A stretch of DNA of 64,000 nt from Polyangiales bacterium (lineage in GTDB: Bacteria; Myxococcota_A; Polyangia; Polyangiales; JADJQN01). The notes below the pieces were generated by a model, which saw nothing but the letters and a program-made list of their open reading frames with translations, did no database searches and was not told where the DNA came from. Location of the stretch: positions 1-64,000 of the forward strand of contig CAXNJO010000008.1 in the NCBI GenBank assembly GCA_964202905.1, written 5' to 3'. A program made the position numbers and the translations under genes. Positions 14,481 to 57,361 of the stretch are shown here, one piece after another (within the stretch, counting starts at the first letter, position 1; every line of letters begins with the position of its first letter).

Positions 14481-16438
14481 TCAAACGATCGGGGCGGCTG
14501 CGTCGGGCACGTCGCCGAGGCGCCCGAGCACGGCCGCCAGATCGGCGGCGAGCGGGGCCTCGAGCCGCAGCGGCACGCCCGTGTGCGGGTGCGTGAGCGC
14601 GATCGACGCGCAGTGCAGAAACGGCCGATCGAGCCCGAATTTCTCGGAGAAATGGCGGTTCGAGGGCGCGTGCCCGTAGCGCGCGTCTCCGACGACGGGG
14701 TGGCCGAGCGCCGCGAGGTGGCGGCGGATCTGGTGCGTGCGTCCCTCCTCGGGGCGGGCCTCGACGAGCGCGTGTCCGCGCAGCACCGCGGTGCGCCGGT
14801 AGCGCGTCCGCGCCGGGCGGAGGACTCCGTCGTCGGGCAGCGCGCGGGCGATCTGCCCCTTCGCGCGGATCACGCCGCGCACCAGCGCGACGTAGCGCTT
14901 CTCGGCGTCCGCGGCGCCGAGCGCACGCTGCCAAGGCGCCACGTCCTCCGGGCGCCGCGCGAAGAGGCACACGCCGCTCGTGCCCGCGTCGAGGCGGTGC
15001 ACGGGCACCGCGCGCGCGCAGCCCGGCAGGCGCCGCACCCGCGCGAGCAGCGAGCCCGCGTGCTCGCCCTGCGGGGTCGTCGGCTCGTACGGGGCCTTCT
15101 CGACGGCGACGAGGGTTTCGTCGGCGAAGACCACGCGCGGGAGCGGGGGCAGGGCGCGATGCAGCACCGCGAGCGTCTCGACCTCGTCGGTGAGCGGGAT
15201 CATGTCCCACGGGCGCGCGCGCTCGGTCGCGTAGCCGAGCCGCGCGAGGTGCGCGAGATCGCGCGCGAGGGTCTCCGGGTCGCACGACACGTAGACGACG
15301 ACGCTCGGCGCGAGCGCAGCGACCGCGGCGCGCACCTCGGGCGCGCAGCCGCGCCGCGGCGGGTTCACGACGACGGCGTCCACGCGCGCCGCGGTCGCCG
15401 CGAGGTCGCCGGCGACGAGCGCCGCGTCCCCCGCGATCGCGTGCAGCGCGTCGAGCCCCTGCGCGCGCGCGGCGGCGGCGGTGTGCGCGACCGCGGGCGC
15501 GTAGGACTCGACGCAGAGCACCCGCGCGCCGCGCTCGGCGAGCGCGAGACCGAGCGCGCCCGACCCGGCGTAGAGGTCCACCACGCGTGCGTCGTCGACG
15601 TCGCCGAGCGCGTCGAAGAGCGCGGCCTGCACGGCCTCGTGGAGCCGCGCGGCCTGCCCGCGGTGCGCCTGCACGAAGGCGCCGTGCGCCGCGAGCTGGT
15701 ACGCGCGCCCCGCGCCCACGCGATCCGGCAGCGCGGCCTCACCCGCGTGCACGCGCAACCCGGTCCCGAGGAGCTGCGGCGAGCCCGCCCGGACGAGGCT
15801 GCTCGCGACCGACGCGATGCACGGCTCCCGCGCGACGAGCCGCTCGGCGAGGATGTCGAGGGCCTCCGTCGCCGGCGCGCGCCCGTCACGCAGGATGAGC
15901 GTGACCATCGCGTGGGATGGTGCCCTGTCGGACGCACCGACGACCTCGCGCACGTCGACGGCCGTCAGCGCGCCGCCGTCGGCCTCCGTGCGGAGCGCGC
16001 CCTCCGCGACGAGCGCGCGCACGGCCGCGACGCCCCGCGCGACGACCGGCGCGAGCACGCGACATTGCGGCAGATCGAGCGTGAGGTGCGCGCCGCCCTG
16101 CGCATAGAGCCCGATGGCGCCGTCCGGGCCCGTGACGAACTTCGCCCGCGTGCGGTAGGCCTCGAGCGACGCGGCGCCTTCCACGTCCGTGATGTCGACC
16201 TGCGCGAGCTCGCCGTACCGCGCGAAGGCCGCTGCGACGCGCGCACGCTTGGCCTCGCGTTGCGCGCCATAGGGCTCGCCGAGCCGCGTGCAGCCGCCGC
16301 AGACGGGCGCGCCCTGCGTCGACGGATCGGTGCCGCGCGGCGCACCGTGCGCGCAATGAACACGCCGCGCATCGCCTGCAAGAACAGGCGCCTGCGCGGC
16401 GTGAGGAAGCGAGCGGGGAGGGGGCTGCTGGCCCGCGG

Positions 16439-16442
<4 letters not shown>
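14481..16442 (-). CDS. Fusion of RlmC/RlmD-type RNA m5U methyltransferase and RluA-type pseudouridine synthase
   Basis: N-terminal part: C…CGGC…C Fe-S motif, [29 protein letters not shown]-terminal part: [31 protein letters not shown]. One continuous frame. GTG start overlaps the thiolase stop. Confidence 0.88.
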
Positions 16443-17603
<1,161 letters not shown>

Positions 17604-23743: not shown

Positions 23744-25057
23744 CGCCCGATCGATGCCCTGTTGCGCGCCGCGCGACATGCCACGTTCGATCACCGCAGA
23801 GGTGCCGGAATGTCGAAAAAGCCCATGATTTCAAGCGAAAGTGGGGGGTAATCGCTGCGCTCCTCGTGTTCGTCGCCGCATGCGGTGACGACACGCCGGG
23901 CGAGACGCCGGACGCCGGCACGACCCTCGACGCCGGATTCGACGGCGCGCCGCCGCGCGACGCGGACGTCGCCGACGGCGCGCTGCCCGGGAGCGTGACG
24001 CGGGTCTCGTCGACGGCTCGACGGGGACGGAGCCGCGGCATGGCAGGATTCGCCTGCGCCGGGCGTCTCGCGATGGCGGGATGTCGGCCATGGACGCGGA
24101 CGTCGCGGCAGCGGCGGGATGTCGAGCGGCGATTCGGGCAGCCCCGATGGCGGCATGCCCGCTATGGACGCGGGCGCGGATGCCGGTGTCGACGCAGGGC
24201 CGCCCGGATGCAGCCCCGCGGCCTGCGACGACGGCGTGAGCTGCACCGAGGATGTGTGCAGCGAAGACGGCCGCTGTGTGCATCGGCTGCTCGAGACGGC
24301 GTGCGCCCGCGGCCAGTACTGCGATCTCGCGCGCGGCTGCGTGAACGGCGCGGTGTGCAGCACCGACGCCGAGTGCGCCGACAGCGACCCGTGCACGACC
24401 ATGGAGCGCTGCGACACCTCGTTCCCACGCCGGTGCACGCACCGCATCCTCGACGCCGACGCGGACCGCGAGACGACCACCGCCTGCGGCGGCGGCGACT
24501 GCAACGATGCGAGCAACACCGTCTCGATGATGGCGCACCAGGTCTGCGGCAGCGCCGTCGACGCAGACTGTGATGGTTTGGTGGCGCTGGATGACCTACT
24601 CGGCACGACGGCGTGTGCGAATGACGTGCTGGTGGGCGGGTTGGCGGCTTGTCCGTCGACTCCAATCGATGTTGGTGGATTCGTAAATCGAGTCGTGGAT
24701 GTGGCTGAGAATCCCCTCGATCCGTCGCTTTGCAGCGACCCCTTCGTCGCGGTTCAGGCCCTCGCGGTGTGTCAATCAACAGCCGCGTGCGATGCATCCA
24801 ACGCTTGCGTAGTTGGCGTGAGCCTCGGATTGACTCCTTCAGATGTGTCCTTCTCGGTAAACGTAGCCTTCACGGATTGCCGCGCGGCGTATCGTGCCGC
24901 CTGCGCATGTGCGGGCTCTTCAGTTCGGTGCGCCACGACTTGGGATTCGCTCTGCGACTCGAACTGTCGTCTCAGCGACGGAAATGCATGTATTGCAAGT
25001 GATATTCGAGGGGCTCCGGAACGTGTCAATGCGTTTGAGACAGTGGACATGAGAAAT

Positions 25058-26200
25058 CTATGTTGCGTTCGAGGCGATGGGCGACGTGCCGCGTAGTCGT
25101 GGAGCACTCGTCGTGGGCGGGTCCACGAGCGCACGAGACGTGCTCGAGATCTCGGACACGACGGTCTGCATGGCGACGTCGTTGGACGGCTTTGCAAGGA
25201 CGCTGACGGCTTCTGCAGTGATCGGGTTGATGTGCACTTCGGTGGGCGGCATCGGGACGCGAGGCGGGCCGTGAGGGAAGCGCTCGGGATGCGCTGCGTA
25301 CGCGGCGTCGAGCGCGCCCTGTCGCGCGGCGCGGACGACTTCGACGCGCCCGAAGAAGACGTCCGCGGGCGTGAAGAGCGCGAGGCCGGAATGATGGTGC
25401 TCGTCGTTGTGCCACCCGAAGAAATCCTGGAGGTAGCCTCGACCGTGGAGCTCGCCTTCGAAGAGGCCCGGGTAGTCGGGCTGGTACTTCAGCGTCTTGA
25501 ACTGCGCCTCGCTGAAAGGGTTGTCGTCGGAGATGCGTGGGCGGCTGAAGCTGGTCGAGGCGCCGAGCGATGCGAACAGTTGGGCGAGCGTGTCGCTCCT
25601 CATAGCGGAGCCGCGGTCGGCGTGGACGGTGAGGCCGGGCTCGACGCCGTGGCGCGCGATGGTCTCGGCGAAGAGCTGAGCGGCGAGGTGCTTGCACTCC
25701 TTGGTCGCGAGCATCCACCCGACGACGTAGCGGCTGAAGAGATCGATGATGACGTACGCCATCAAGAAGACTCCCTTCTGCACCGTCGCGAGCTTCGTGA
25801 TGTCCCATGTCCAAACTTGGTTCGGCGCGGTCGCCGTGAGCGACGGTTTCGTATACGCTCGCGCAGGACGCTGATTTCTGCGCTCGCCCGTCTCGCCCGC
25901 GGCGGCAAGCACGCGGTAAATCGTGCGGATGGACGCGAGATACACGCCTGTGCCGAGCAAGGCCGCGTAGACCTCGGTGGGCGGCTGATCGACGAACTCG
26001 GGAAGATGGAGAGTGTCGAGGATGCGCTGGCGCTCGCTGTCGGCGAGACGACGCGGACTCGGCGCACACACTCGGGCCACGAGCGGCCCAATGAAGCGTG
26101 GTCGACGGGACCGATAGAGCGTCGCGCGACTCACCTCGAGCGCGTCGCACGCCGCGTTCACCGGCACGAGGTCGTGGTCTCGTTGTTCGACGATGGCCAT
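25058..26200 (-). CDS. IS3-family transposase OrfB (DDE integrase core)
   Basis: PNQVWTWDIT, DLFSRYVVGW, HADRGS, DNPFSEAQFKTLKY. ATG overlaps the orfA stop (TGATG). Confidence 0.92.
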   Translation of the reverse strand: MAIVEQRDHDLVPVNAACDALEVSRATLYRSRRPRFIGPLVARVCAPSPRRLADSERQRILDTLHLPEFVDQPPTEVYAALLGTGVYLASIRTIYRVLAAAGETGERRNQRPARAYTKPSLTATAPNQVWTWDITKLATVQKGVFLMAYVIIDLFSRYVVGWMLATKECKHLAAQLFAETIARHGVEPGLTVHADRGSAMRSDTLAQLFASLGASTSFSRPRISDDNPFSEAQFKTLKYQPDYPGLFEGELHGRGYLQDFFGWHNDEHHHSGLALFTPADVFFGRVEVVRAARQGALDAAYAAHPERFPHGPPRVPMPPTEVHINPITAEAVSVLAKPSNDVAMQTVVSEISSTSRALVDPPTTSAPRLRGTSPIASNAT

Positions 26201-26652
26201 CAGATCTCCCCGTCGAACTCGGGCAGTGCGATTCCCAGTATCTCGTGCGCTTTTTTTTGGAGGTCGATGAGCGCGTGCGCGACGAGCAGCTTGCGCTGCG
26301 TCCGTGCGAGCTCCTTGGTGACCGCGAGCAGCTGCCGGTCCTTCGCGTCGAGCTTGGGCTTGCGACCAGGCTTCTGCGCCGCGAGGCCCGCGATACCACG
26401 AACCCCGAGCTGCGTGCGCCACGCGGTCAGGTGCGAGCTGTAGATGCCTTCCTTGCGCAACAGGGCAGCCAGCGCACCTCGCTCGCCGCTGACGACCGCG
26501 GCCTCTGCGGCCTTCACAAGACGCAACTTCTCCGACGCCGAGAACCGTCGCCGCGTTGTGGGCGGCACGCTCTCCAGCGATGCTCCGCTCGCGCCGAGCT
26601 CACGCTCTTTGGTGAGACTTTCAGGACGAGGAACTGGGGCACGCTTGGGCAT
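26200..26652 (-). CDS. IS3-family transposase OrfA
   Basis: RRRFSASEKLR…LLRKEGIYSSHLTAWR HTH, and an LQKK A8 slippery site at 26251-26258. Confidence 0.88.
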   Translation of the reverse strand: MPKRAPVPRPESLTKERELGASGASLESVPPTTRRRFSASEKLRLVKAAEAAVVSGERGALAALLRKEGIYSSHLTAWRTQLGVRGIAGLAAQKPGRKPKLDAKDRQLLAVTKELARTQRKLLVAHALIDLQKKAHEILGIALPEFDGEI

Positions 26653-27404
26653 TCTCGGTGAACCATTCTCCGCCCATCAGGACAAACATATCGAGGGAAA
26701 GCTGTCTCACGCGACGTTGGCACAGAGGGCTCCACCCACCTTCGACATTTGTCGTGATCTCGGCGCCGACGAGAACAACTGCGGTGCGTGCGGGAATGTC
26801 TGCGCGACGGGGGAGGCCTGCCTGCGCGGCGTCTGCTGTCGAGATGTGGACGGTGATGGAGACCTGACTCCCGCGTGCGGCGGTACGGATTGCGATGACA
26901 GTCGGCCAGAAGTGTTCGGAGCCGCTGTCGATTTGTGTGACGGACTCGACAACGATTGCGATGGCGCCACTGACGAGGACGATCCGGCTATTGGAACGCC
27001 CTGCAGCTCTGCTGCGTGTGCGGCGTCGAGTGTGCGGATCTGCTCGGCGGGGACGTGGACATGTGGTGGAACATGGACGAGCGAGTGCGAAACAGGTCTG
27101 GAGATCGACCTTGGCGAGCGCCATGGCTGTGTTCGGCGCCCGCTGAACGACTTGTATTGTTGGGGTACGAATACTGCGGGGCAGATTGGAAACGGTGGAT
27201 TGGTCGGTGCGTTGAATGTCACGCCCGTGTTCGTGATGTCGAACGTGATTGATGAAAGTGCAGGGCTTAACACGCAGTGTGCAGTACGTGCCGATGGTGC
27301 GGTCTTCTGTTGGGGGGGCAATAGCGTCGGACAGATCGGTGATGGTACCTTCCTCGACCGCTCCACGGCGAGCTGAACCTCCCCCCGTTCTGCGGACAGT
27401 TTGA

Positions 27405-28280
27405 CTATGCAGCCCGCCCTTGAATCTGACTCATCAATTCGAACTCGATAGGACTCATGTACCCGAGATGCGAGTGACGACGTCGCGTGTTGTAGAAGTT
27501 GTCGATGTAATCGCCGATCGCGACGGTCGCCGCGTCGTGCGACGTGTAGATGTGCTCGCCGACGAGCTCGGTCTTCAAGGTGCTGAAGAAGCTCTCGGCG
27601 ACGGCGTTGTCCCAGCAGTCCCCCTTCCGGCTCATGCTCGCGATCATGGCGAAGCGCTCGAGCTCGGCGCGGTAGTCGTCGCTGGCGTAGGGGCTTCCGC
27701 GATCGGAGTGCTGCACGAGGCCCGCTGGTGGCCGCCTCGTCGTGATCGCGTCGCGGAGCGCGTCGAGCGCCAGGAAGCGGTCGTTCGTCGCGCTCGTCGC
27801 CCAGCCGACGACGCGGCGCGAGAACAAGTCGAGCATCACGGCGAGGAACAGCCAGCCGCTGCGCGTCCAGATGCACGTCACGTCGGTGACCCAGGTGTCG
27901 TTCTTCTCGTCGGTGACGAAGTTGCGATCGACGACGTTCGGCGCGATCGGGTCACCGTGCTTCGAGTCGGTCGTCGCGCGGAAGCGCTTCTTGGCCCGCG
28001 CCACGAGGCAGTCTTCGCGCATGATCTTCGCGACGGTCTTCTCGCTCACGATCACGCCGTCGGCCTGCAGCTCGGCGCGGACGCGAGGACTCCCATAGGT
28101 TCGTCGGCTCGCCTCGAAGGCCTCGCGCACCTTCGCGCGCAGCTCGGTGTTGCGGGCCTTCCGCTTCGACACGGGCAGCGCCTTCCATCTGTAGAAGCCG
28201 CTCGTCGAGACGCGGAGCACGCAGCACATCACGGTCACGGGGTAGGCCACCGTCCACGCGAGGATGAACGCGTACTTCAC
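27405..28280 (-). CDS. IS3-family transposase OrfB
   Basis: YGSPRV, WVTDVT, DLFSRRVVGW, HSDRGS, CWDNAVAESFFSTLKTE, YNTRRRHS. Confidence 0.95.
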   Translation of the reverse strand: MKYAFILAWTVAYPVTVMCCVLRVSTSGFYRWKALPVSKRKARNTELRAKVREAFEASRRTYGSPRVRAELQADGVIVSEKTVAKIMREDCLVARAKKRFRATTDSKHGDPIAPNVVDRNFVTDEKNDTWVTDVTCIWTRSGWLFLAVMLDLFSRRVVGWATSATNDRFLALDALRDAITTRRPPAGLVQHSDRGSPYASDDYRAELERFAMIASMSRKGDCWDNAVAESFFSTLKTELVGEHIYTSHDAATVAIGDYIDNFYNTRRRHSHLGYMSPIEFELMSQIQGRAA

Positions 28281-28585
28281 GCGTTCTCCTTGGCGAAGAA
28301 GGTGGCCGCCGCTTTTAGGATTTCGCGTTCCATTCGGAGCTGCTTGTTCTCTCGCCGCAGCCGCGCCAGCTCGGCCCGCTCTTCGGTCATCAGCACCGTA
28401 GGGCTTCCGACGCCTGCGTCTGCCTCAGCTCGCCGCACCCACTCGCGCAGCGTCGTCTCCGTGAGGTCGAGGTCCTTCGCCACCTGCGTCGCGGACTTCC
28501 CGCTCACGACCAGCCGCACCGCGTCTGCTCGAAACTCCGGCGTGAACGATCGCTTTGCTCGCCGGCCTGTCTTCAGCTTCTTCAT
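28277..28585 (-). CDS. IS3-family transposase OrfA
   Basis: RSFTPEFRADAVRLV, VAKDL, MEREILKAAATFFAKE. GAGGAG RBS. Confidence 0.92.
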   Translation of the reverse strand: MKKLKTGRRAKRSFTPEFRADAVRLVVSGKSATQVAKDLDLTETTLREWVRRAEADAGVGSPTVLMTEERAELARLRRENKQLRMEREILKAAATFFAKENA

Positions 28586-29489
28586 GGACACTCCTCGCGC
28601 ATCTTCGCGCTACCCGGGGTGTCCGCAAACCGGGGGGAAGCTCGACCCGAGTGGTCCGGGGTTTCCGATGCCATTCAGGTCGCGGTTGGGCCGCGGCACG
28701 GTTGCGCGACTCGACGCGGTGGTCGTGTCGTGTGCTGGGGAGGCAACTCAACGGGGGCGCTGGGCGACGGGACATTCGTAAGCACGTCGACCCCCGTTGA
28801 TGTGGTTGGGTTGGACGACGCAGTCGAGGTCGAAGTTGGCACTCTCCACAGTTGCGCGCGTCGGCGTTCAGGAACCGTGGAGTGCTGGGGAGGGCCGAGG
28901 TTGCTTGGAGACGGGCTCACGGTGGCCCGGGCGACTCCTGGGCCCGTTTCAGGTCTGAGTGACGCGACCGCACTCAGCGTCAATCTCGGTCGATCTTGCG
29001 CGGTGCGCGCCTTGGGAACAGTCGTGTGTTGGGGCGGCGCGCCTTCCATCGATGCGCCGCTTCCCGTCGAAGTTGCAATGACGGCTGGGGCTGTCGCCGT
29101 CGATGTCGGGAACCGGTTTGTTTGCGCTCGTCGAGCGGACGGCAATGCAGTCTGCTGGGGTGAGAACAGCTACGGGCAATTGGGTGGCGGAACGGCGTCT
29201 GCAACGCCGATTTCCGTTCCGGTCTTGGTGTCCGGTGTCCTGGCATCGCTAGCATCGCCGCTGGCTATCGCTCTTCCTGCGCGGTGCGCGACGATGGCCG
29301 TGTCTTCTGCTGGGGCTTCAACGGCGATGGGCAGCTTGGCGATGGAACGACGGTTGATAGGCTCAGCCCAACCGCCGTCGTCGGATTCTGAGCGAATGAA
29401 AGAAACCATCGACCAGCAACGCGACACACGTATTCGAACTATCCGCATCTGAGTACATTGCGTATTTGGTCGCATCGAAAGGGTCTGCT

Positions 29490-30206
29490 ATGGCGCTGCG
29501 TTCAATCACCATTCGAATTGGCTACACATGGGACGACAAGCTCGCAAAGGATGAGCGTTGGCGGGCTCTGCGGGAATTCTGCGAGAGTGCCGGGCGGCAA
29601 GGCCTGAGTCAGGCGAACACCCTTTTGGCGCGCGCTGTGACGGCGGAGGACGATGGGGAGGGAGAGCCGAGCAGCCTCGAGGAGGCGTGGAAGGCAGGCC
29701 GGCTGCCCGGGCTACGGGTCGAGCGGTTGCGAGCGTCGGCCGGGCGATTCGCGTGGGAGAACATCCGCTCGCGGATTGATGGTGCGGACATCCTCGTGTT
29801 CGACTACACGCCGGTCGCCAAAGGCGGGAGAGACGTTGCGGCGACGAGCGGTAATGTCTGGCTCGAGCTTGGATACGCGTACGGCCGGAAGGAGCCCGAA
29901 AATGTGTTCGTCACGCATGCGGAATCCGACGGACATCACGACATCCCCTCGGATTTGCGAGGGCTCATCGTCGGTCATCTCCCAGACAGTGGCGGTGTCG
30001 GTGATCGGTCGCTTCGTGCCGCTATCGCAGGCGCGGTGAAGCGCATCGCGATCGAGCGTGCTGAGGCGAGTATGCAGAGCGGAAGCCATGCTCGAACGAT
30101 TGAGACGCTGAGCTCGGAGGTACCGGAATCGCCAACCAGGAAGCAGGCGGCGAAGGGAAAAGCCGTGTCGAAGCCAAAGACCAAGAATCCTCGGTCGAAG
30201 GGCTGA
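29490..30206 (+). CDS. TIR-like/nucleoside 2-deoxyribosyltransferase-like nucleotide-processing protein
   Basis: IRSRIDGADILVFDYT…NVWLELGYAYG…IPSDLRGL pattern, Lys-rich tail, lower GC3 than the host genes. Confidence 0.6.
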   Translation: MALRSITIRIGYTWDDKLAKDERWRALREFCESAGRQGLSQANTLLARAVTAEDDGEGEPSSLEEAWKAGRLPGLRVERLRASAGRFAWENIRSRIDGADILVFDYTPVAKGGRDVAATSGNVWLELGYAYGRKEPENVFVTHAESDGHHDIPSDLRGLIVGHLPDSGGVGDRSLRAAIAGAVKRIAIERAEASMQSGSHARTIETLSSEVPESPTRKQAAKGKAVSKPKTKNPRSKG

Positions 30207-56371: not shown

Positions 56372-57361
56372 GTGACCGCGCCCATCGCCCTGCTCCTCGA
56401 CGCCTCCGCGAGCGGCGAGCGCCTCGACAAGGTGCTCGCCGCGCTCGTTCCGTCGGCCTCGCGCGCCACGTTGCAGCGCTGGATCACCGAGGGGCGCGTC
56501 ACCGTCGACGGCGCGCCCGCGCGGGTCAGCGCGAAGGCGAGGGCCGGGCAGCGGGTCGTCGTCACGCCGGCGCCCGCGCCGCCCGGCGACGCCCTGCCCG
56601 AGGACATCCCGCTGACGGTGCTCTTCGAGGACGCGGATCTCCTCGTCCTCGACAAGCCCGCGGGCCTCGTCGTGCATCCCGCGGCCGGGCATCCGGACGG
56701 GACGCTCGTGAACGCGGTGCTGCACCACACGCGCATCGAGGTCCCGACGGACGACGCGCTCGACGACGACGCGGGCCCTGACTCCGAGGCGCCCGGACAC
56801 GCGGGCCCCGAGCCCGTCTCGCGGCCCGGCATCGTGCACCGCCTCGACAAGGACACGAGCGGCGTGATGGTCGTCGCCAAGACGCTCCGCGCGCGTGACG
56901 GCCTCGTGCGCGTCTTCGCGGCGCACGCGCTCGAGCGTCGCTACCTCGCCATCGCGACGGGCGCGCCGCCCGACGCCGTCACCTACGACACGCTCCACGC
57001 GCGTCACCCCACCGATCGGAAGCGCTTCACGAGCCGCGCGCTCCGCGGCAAGCGCGCGATCACGCACGTCGCGGTGCGCGAGCGCCTGCATGGCGCGGCG
57101 CTCGTCGTGTGTCGCCTCGAGACGGGGCGCACGCATCAGATCCGCGTGCACCTCGCGGACGCGGGCTTCGCGCTCCTCGGCGACCGCGTCTATGGGCGCC
57201 CGCCGCGCGACGCGCACGTGCGGGCCGCGGGGGAGGCGCTCTCCCGCCAGGCGCTTCATGCGGCGTCGCTCGCGTTCGCGCACCCGGTGAGCGGCGCGCC
57301 GTTGCGCTTCGAGTCCGCGCCGCCCGAGGACTTCGCCGCCGCGCTCGCGGCCCTGCGCTGA
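56372..57361 (+). CDS. rluD: RluA-family pseudouridine synthase with S4 domain (RluD-like)
   Basis: RLDKVLA S4 domain, KPAGLVVHP, RPGIVHRLDKDTSG, GRTHQIRVH, RQALHA. Confidence 0.9.
   Translation: MTAPIALLLDASASGERLDKVLAALVPSASRATLQRWITEGRVTVDGAPARVSAKARAGQRVVVTPAPAPPGDALPEDIPLTVLFEDADLLVLDKPAGLVVHPAAGHPDGTLVNAVLHHTRIEVPTDDALDDDAGPDSEAPGHAGPEPVSRPGIVHRLDKDTSGVMVVAKTLRARDGLVRVFAAHALERRYLAIATGAPPDAVTYDTLHARHPTDRKRFTSRALRGKRAITHVAVRERLHGAALVVCRLETGRTHQIRVHLADAGFALLGDRVYGRPPRDAHVRAAGEALSRQALHAASLAFAHPVSGAPLRFESAPPEDFAAALAALR

Follow-up and report, generated by a model that had tools for sequence, protein, structure and literature searches.

The closest described relatives of the gene analysed here are m5U methyltransferases of the COG2265 family and pseudouridine synthases of the RluA family. 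Escherichia coli RlmC (RumB) makes m5U747 in 23S rRNA and lacks a TRAM domain (PMC5614603). RlmCD (Streptococcus pneumoniae; YefA in Bacillus subtilis) acts on both U747 and U1939, and its U747 contacts are described in PMC6235398. B. subtilis RlmS (YfjO) is an RlmCD-side COG2265 paralogue with a lineage-specific target, m5U620, equivalent to U576 (bioRxiv 2026.04.17.719261). In RumA, the TRAM domain contacts RNA at a distance from the target and contributes binding energy (PMC2528175). Among the synthases, E. coli RluA makes Psi746 and tRNA Psi32, and TruC makes tRNA Psi65; the roles of the forefinger and thumb loops of RluA are taken from PMC3753934 and the reference assignments from PMC3241648 and PMC13602947. 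Hairpin 35, which carries positions 746 and 747, lines the exit tunnel at the place where macrolides and ketolides bind (PMC6235398). Target predictions for such enzymes have often been wrong (PMC7226160), and the m5U family includes a shift of target in PabTrmU54 (PMC2528175).

The nearest precedents for fused modifiers are RlmKL, which holds two methyltransferases in one chain, and TrcP, a deaminase joined to an RluA-type synthase that keeps hold of its substrate through both steps (PMC9553926). The locus described here likewise places two RNA-modifying domains in one chain but differs in chemistry and partners; both activities are used in RlmKL and TrcP, whereas one is often lost here. Unlike the present protein, RlmS is a stand-alone enzyme of Bacillus, with no synthase domain reported in the accessible part of its description. 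We found no description of a methyltransferase–synthase fusion in the literature searched, which took in few subscription journals. The architecture is already in databases under automatic names, and public annotation mislabels the fusions as a U1939 methyltransferase or as a pseudouridine synthase only. Myxobacterial rRNA modification is uncharted: a literature search on 23S rRNA modification in Myxococcus returned a single, unrelated review.

An original prediction, made from a 64,000-nucleotide stretch of a Polyangiales genome (the window), had proposed that one gene fuses the two enzyme types and may write the adjacent Psi746 and m5U747, or an analogous pair in tRNA. The fusion is real and conserved. 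This copy may write both Psi746 and m5U747. Better supported is the retention of the synthase domain, as a module predicted to dock, even though catalysis has been lost repeatedly.

A methyltransferase and a synthase in one reading frame

The locus comprises the following features.

14481..16442, minus strand: fused gene P0001, 653 aa, GTG start, TGA stop; homologues P0002 and P0003 share its start and length
16439..17603, minus strand: upstream thiolase, whose stop overlaps the fusion start; not a conserved partner
15153..16442, minus strand: COG2265 m5U methyltransferase, residues 1–430, without TRAM; best fold match S. pneumoniae RlmCD
16062..16355, minus strand: four Fe-S cysteines, C30, C48, C51 and C127, each present in 115–120 of 121 sequences, the remainder being gaps
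15765..15791, minus strand: linker B of the central domain (…GSPQLLG), of the long form seen in RlmC and RlmCD; RlmD has a short one (alignment; PMC5614603)
15354..15365, minus strand: motif IV, NPPR, residues 360–363; Asn360 as in E. coli RlmC, Arg363 equivalent to the target-ribose binder R384 of RlmCD
15282..15284, minus strand: catalytic Cys387, motif VI, in 217 of 218 homologues
15177..15179, minus strand: general base Glu422, motif VIII, in 217 of 218 homologues
15138..15158, minus strand: short junction, residues 429–435, in frame in homologues; model pLDDT above 95
14508..15146, minus strand: RluA-family pseudouridine synthase domain, residues 433–645, without S4; site intact here
14988..14999, minus strand: motif II, HRLD, residues 482–485 (Arg483, catalytic Asp485); the full site occurs in 95 of 218 homologues, and 71 are without the Asp
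14520..14660, minus strand: C-terminal docking elements, residues 595–606 (NRHFxExxGLDR) and 633–641; predicted interface, retained after loss of catalysis

As had been claimed, the fusion is a single stop-free frame, of 653 codons (window 16442..14481, minus strand). Its GTG shares bases with the stop codon of the thiolase that precedes it (GTGA), and this start is fixed by P0002 and P0003, which are 82–83% identical to it, start identically and are 653 aa each. Pfam recognizes tRNA_U5-meth_tr at residues 277–429 and PseudoU_synth_2 (PF00849) at 444–578 and returns neither a TRAM nor an S4 match, in line with the predicted absence of both; the two domains, in the extents given above, are joined by about six residues. 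The motifs named beforehand (the Cys cluster, DLYAGSG at 289–295, SCDP at 386–389 and HRLD) are all present, and the separate S4-bearing RluD said to be encoded in the window is an RluD-type gene at 56390–57361, plus strand.

Among the matches listed, all 120 homologues carry PF00849 and 119 of them span at least 89% of the query. In 11 of 40 relatives no stop interrupts the stretch that covers the two halves; a twelfth also covers both, but with frame breaks. The junction is in frame in these independent sequences, and an assembly artefact at that point is rejected on this ground despite indel errors close by in the assembly; four public runs yielded no junction-bridging contig among the pieces listed.

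One such indel lies at window 16602, where an extra base, missing from an otherwise identical contig, disrupts the thiolase frame and is probably an assembly error. It causes the ORF finder to extend the fusion frame into the thiolase and makes indel artefacts a real concern in this region. The RlmD-type gene of this genome, at C4:392099-393400 (minus strand), has its TRAM region in a different frame, probably through a second assembly indel. A thiolase motif lies beside the fusion at 2 of 85 loci, and no conserved RNA-related neighbour was found in 116 loci, the commonest recognizable neighbour being a response regulator (12 loci). Elsewhere in the window, positions 24001–30000 have a GC content of 64–66% against about 75% in the rest, which suggests acquired DNA.

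Family placement of the two halves

The methyltransferase half carries all of the COG2265 motifs: Gln258 (motif X), Asp289 (I), Asn360 (IV), Cys387 (VI) and Glu422 (VIII). In an alignment of 247 sequences, reduced to 218 by dropping 5 duplicates and 24 partial rows, Gln258 is kept in 213, Asp or Asn at position 360 in 215 and Arg363 in all 218. The NPPR of motif IV had been taken for an unusual change; E. coli RlmC itself reads NPPRRG, and position 360 is Asn in 164 of the homologues and Asp in 51.

This half leans towards RlmC and RlmCD. For METHYLTRANSFERASE, the best solved match by both sequence and fold is S. pneumoniae RlmCD. The fold matches of homologue P0343 rank RlmCD (Z 44.8) above RumA (38.7) and TrmA (33.3), and the query gives the same order. 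It resembles E. coli RlmC in the lack of TRAM, the Cys cluster, NPPRRG and the long linker B, a feature that PMC5614603 links to U747 and records in RlmC, and that RlmCD shares; linker A is long in the query and its near relatives and short in some members. It departs from E. coli RlmC in identity (about 29%), in altered motifs X and VIII, in the fused RluA-family domain and in profile scores, the RlmC HMMs giving 145, 127 and 80 bits, far under their cut-offs of 558, 553 and 429.5. Neither the RlmD profile TIGR00479 (161.8 bits, cut-off 183.55) nor TrmA (42.6 bits against 334.65, the lowest-scoring HMM) reaches its threshold, and the fusion passes no curated cut-off for RlmC, RlmD, TrmA, RluA, TruC, RluC or RluD. 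The combination of TRAM with short central linkers that defines RlmD is not found in it. The missing TRAM, NPPR, the long linker B and the RlmCD fold speak for an RlmC-type methyltransferase, and the RlmC HMM scores speak against it.

Unlike RlmCD, the fusion has no TRAM, and the Fe-S cysteines that it carries are absent from S. pneumoniae RlmCD (PMC5614603). Equivalents of the RlmCD U747 contacts R127, F146, H151 (H119 here), F281, Q283 and R384 are kept, as are those of C408 and E443. By contrast, F145 and Q162 are each replaced by Leu, N247 and N249 are absent and H441 is Glu in most members; of the U747-reading set F145, H151, Q162, N247, N249 and H441, only H151 is retained. In the trees the fused methyltransferases form one clade (support 96 in one and 95 in the other, both starred) that falls on the RlmC/RlmCD side (93 and 94). 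E. coli RlmC is the nearest named branch in the best trees, the grouping having a support of 73 in one tree and open forks in three others, and in the widest tree three unfused proteins are nested within the fused group. AU tests on 23 rows rejected neither a grouping with the RlmD clade (P = 0.29) nor one with TrmA (P = 0.45). The RlmD-type gene on C4 groups with RlmD.

The synthase half has the fold, the motif II Arg-x-Asp, the motif IIa Tyr and the motifs I and III of the RluA family, and its site residues K449, R483, D485, Y517 and GRTHQIR (motif III, 567–573) are intact. The active sites of both halves are therefore intact in this copy, as predicted, and its synthase is probably active to judge from these motifs. 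Orthology with RluA was not borne out: among the E. coli enzymes, RluA gives the poorest match in both HMM and BLAST comparisons (HMM 53 bits, cut-off 286, against 101 for TruC, cut-off 328, and 87 for RluC), and the fused synthases form their own clade (96/99, starred) without a supported sister. A smaller tree has TruC as sister (89, unstarred), and AU tests on it rejected neither RluA (P = 0.108) nor RluC (P = 0.075). Foldseek places RluA (2i82, rmsd 2.2) at the top. Across motif I and the forefinger segment of the 95 intact members, RluA is the best of the E. coli references (32.2 against 11.2, 7.4 and 3.2), the thumb loop is far shorter than that of RluA and the tail resembles TruC and RluC. 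With RluA, TruC and RluC the domain shares fold, HRLD, Tyr and motif III; it differs from them in its separate clade, short thumb, fusion and loss of the site in more than half of the family. Segment by segment, it reads as a mosaic, part RluA-like and part TruC/RluC-like.

Seven other RluA-family genes, including TruC-type and RluD-type copies, are present in the genome, none over the RluA cut-off. A stand-alone, S4-less RluA-family gene at C9:169602-170462 (minus strand; L348) has SRLD and a forefinger very like that of the fused domain, making its product a candidate for the RluA-like enzyme of the cell. A second, unrelated fusion at C2:746936-748729 (minus strand; L350) has the reverse order, an RluA-family domain followed by an RlmI-type methyltransferase (PF00849 + PF10672); its motif II is degenerate (HHSLD, without the Arg), and clusters of this type in the Atlas come from Bdellovibrionota, Verrucomicrobiota and Myxococcota. 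In a delta-proteobacterial MAG (L044:3638-6097), an NPPR methyltransferase whose frame gives no TRAM match lies 4 bases ahead of an S4-bearing RluD-like gene; the pair is adjacent but unfused, and its synthase lies outside the fused clade.

Candidate RNA targets

The features above indicate that the fusion would work like RlmC joined to an RluA-family domain, and we favour 23S U747, by a modest degree, as the leading candidate target of its methyltransferase. The genome has its own RlmD-type gene and a TrmFO, which leaves U747, by elimination, as the remaining known m5U site; TrmFO also occurs in 114 of 121 sampled genomes, a count that includes the unpublished G115. Outside this genome the argument is weaker, because many genomes contain a third paralogue with TRAM and NPPR. 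No complementarity between the fusion and other m5U paralogues was seen, several genomes holding the fusion together with a TRAM-bearing NPPR paralogue. Further m5U paralogue clades of Myxococcota, represented by L325-L327, L332-L335, L337-L341, L038, L292 and L297-L299, carry TRAM and in most cases NPPR, and some Myxococcota genomes have three m5U paralogues. An RlmA zinc ribbon was not found in this 94%-complete genome.

We propose, as a tentative reading that falls a little short of probable, that the protein is an m5U writer of the RlmC/RlmCD type with an RluA-family module docked in place of TRAM, catalysis by that module being optional. The enzyme would convert U747 of the 23S hairpin-35 loop to m5U in a SAM-dependent reaction in which Cys387 would attack C6, SAM would methylate C5 and Glu422 would take off the proton. 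The C-terminal RluA-family domain would be packed rigidly beside the methyltransferase active site, replacing the TRAM of unfused relatives, and would serve primarily as a structural or RNA-holding module. Its synthase activity, present by sequence here and lost repeatedly elsewhere, would be optional; where it is active, U746 in the same loop would be the leading candidate, with U746 and U747 handled sequentially. For the synthase of this particular copy, Psi746 is a plausible product, though less likely than not.

The original prediction went further, proposing that one chain may write both marks. In that model, lineages with intact sites would pass hairpin 35 between the two sites to make Psi746 and m5U747. 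A bolder version adds that the sites are rigidly docked and that the synthase replaced TRAM, so that it persists as a pseudo-enzyme after many independent losses of catalysis, down to a remnant of about 130 residues. We consider both versions doubtful. Dual writing fits the two intact active sites of this copy, the forefinger similarity to RluA, the Foldseek ranking with the unrejected RluA grouping and the lack of any gene above the RluA cut-off in the genome; furthermore, the hairpin-35 loop GUUGAAAA is present in the genome and matches the RluA consensus UUNNAAA (PMC3753934). Against it stand the low rank of RluA by HMM and BLAST, the short thumb with a TruC/RluC-like tail, the pairing with TruC in the best small tree and the stand-alone paralogue at C9:169602, whose forefinger is closer still (43.5) and which could be the RluA-like enzyme of the cell. 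The site is also incomplete in 123 of 218 homologues, yet U746 is kept in 37 of 37 genomes. The whole loop, U747 included, is invariant in these genomes whether the synthase is live or dead, and consequently does not discriminate between live and dead fusions. What survives of the dual-writer proposal is the real fusion, the two intact sites and U747 as leading target; what does not is a synthase that is an RluA orthologue with a site kept across the family. The model overlaps the docked-module reading for this copy without explaining the family.

The methyltransferase might instead have shifted to another rRNA uridine, either one like the U576 of B. subtilis RlmS or an undescribed one, with the fused domain giving specificity. 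Its RNA-contact segments show family-specific changes (FQxN to FVQAH, and DxFPxTxHVE replaced) and it forms its own well-supported clade; such changes of target have precedents (PMC2528175; bioRxiv 2026.04.17.719261), all 37 genomes have a U at position 576, and a TrcP chimera indicates that a fused domain can retarget RluA (PMC9553926). We nevertheless judge this unlikely, as TRAM loss, linker B and NPPR are all as in RlmC, a known TRAM-less rRNA enzyme, and no 23S uridine follows the synthase state of the fusion. Across 16 genomes with intact, 14 with ambiguous and 7 with dead synthases, no 23S column separated the states and 253 U columns were invariant. Position 955 is A rather than U in this genome, excluding an RluC-like role at 955 here.

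A tRNA T-arm enzyme making m5U54 and a TruC-like Psi65 would account for TruC as the best equivalog HMM of the synthase (101 bits) and its sister in the best small tree, and for the absence of TRAM, which TrmA also lacks, the grouping with TrmA being unrejected. This reading is highly improbable given TrmFO here and in most sampled genomes, the separate TruC-type gene of the genome (180 bits) and the last place of TrmA both in HMM score (43 bits) and among the fold matches within the family. Stand-alone TruC occurs with live and dead fusions alike, in a survey whose threshold missed the TruC copy of this very genome.

Predicted docking and repeated loss of the synthase site

Surveyed across Myxococcota, as the original prediction had envisaged, the fusion proved widespread. 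Of the 301 genomes sampled from the order, 140 gave matches at E 1e-60 or better, mostly single copy; these include the unpublished G283, also one of the 218 alignment rows, on which no conclusion depends. Named homologues come from Polyangiaceae, Labilithrix and Pendulispora, and the fusion also occurs in other Myxococcota classes. Of 401 in a sample of the phylum, 77 matched at 1e-75, and these mix fusions with close unfused methyltransferases: 40 of these loci comprised 11 fusions with a normal-looking synthase, 19 with a dead or eroded one and 10 unfused proteins. Only an eroded remnant, in many cases of 130–175 aa, is left at 18 of the 40 loci. Some clades consist entirely of members with a remnant (down to about 130 aa) that retains the C-terminal motifs, and Pfam fails to detect the eroded domain. 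The ESM Atlas contains clusters with the same two Pfam domains, commonest in Myxococcota.

Among the 218 homologues, the synthase site is complete in 95, reduced to the Asp in 52 and without Asp in 71. One inactive domain, which the original prediction had named as telling against dual writing, is thus found across much of the family, and dual writing cannot be what holds the fusion together family-wide. The methyltransferase residues, in contrast, hardly vary in any of these classes, Cys387 and Glu422 each being kept in 217. The 121 closest sequences all retain the synthase Asp and therefore hide this asymmetry. On the tree, the site changes 26 times between complete and Asp-less, at least 10 of these being forced by starred branches; the counts carry no direction, and we infer repeated loss because stand-alone relatives have the complete site. 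As the catalytic and RNA-pinching elements vanish, G585 (218 of 218), R606 (216), H610 (212), D634 and the NRHFxExxGLDR helix persist, in the short remnants as well.

Structure prediction places several of these persisting elements at a contact between the halves. The full-length model has a pTM of 0.91, and the halves folded as two chains scored 0.79 against 0.01 for the best of three controls, with contact agreement of at least 88% and partner pLDDT of at least 90. The docking mark used is reached by 116 of 157 solved pairs and 2 of 215 mismatched pairs; the score is not independent of the sequence family, because the chains are halves of one protein with a shared alignment, and pairs cut from a single natural chain often reach the mark through resemblance to solved structures. 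The predicted interface joins methyltransferase residues 72–78, 363–372 and 388–403 to synthase residues 450–453, 599–606 and 633–641, adjoining motifs IV and VI. No solved complex of a similar kind was among the structure matches of the query. Few inter-domain pairs emerged from mutual information. Three lie inside the predicted interface (D388–R641, R401–E453 and R371–D605), a weak signal and not an independent one.

The Asp-less domain is predicted to still fold and to retain the synthase fold. A model of an Asp-less homologue has a pLDDT of 95.8 and a pTM of 0.94, and its C-terminal part matches RluC with Z 18.9 and rmsd 2.5 over 176 residues. In Asp-less members, 66% of interface positions are kept compared with 55% of other conserved positions; for catalytic positions the figure is 18%, partly by definition of the classes. 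A TRAM profile run over 319 sequences matched no fused member and a single unfused control (L038), and many unfused sisters carry TRAM where fused members do not. Arg394 is present in 29 of 29 fused members, 83 of 88 TRAM-bearing proteins and 14 of 20 without TRAM, and is noisy as a mark of a partner domain. By analogy, and partly from the architecture of RumA, it is somewhat more likely than not that the surface used by TRAM is taken up here by the synthase domain. Because it remains attached after loss of its active site in many relatives, the synthase half probably has the added role of a built-in clamp on the methyltransferase.

The position of the predicted interface bears on one further reading, in which both halves act on one base, U being converted to Psi and then methylated at N1 to m1Psi. 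N1 of Psi occupies the place of C5 of U, and the predicted docked surface adjoins motifs IV and VI. In TrcP, a single base is modified first by one domain and then by another (PMC9553926). We give this reading hardly any credence: 217 of 218 homologues have the Cys that C5 chemistry requires, none of the 71 Asp-less members departs from full conservation of the methyltransferase and the choice of Asn or Asp at position 360 does not go with synthase state (sign test, median P = 1).

On the bolder version of the dual-writer model, the family would form a natural series from active to dead to minimal, in which an enzyme becomes an RNA-binding or scaffolding module. The live, dead and minimal versions make testable both the choice of target by TRAM-less m5U enzymes and the role of a dead pseudouridine synthase. 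Two genomes of one genus each hold two fused paralogues (L152/L153 and L166/L167), with degenerate synthase sites throughout and Gln258 apparently altered in one copy.
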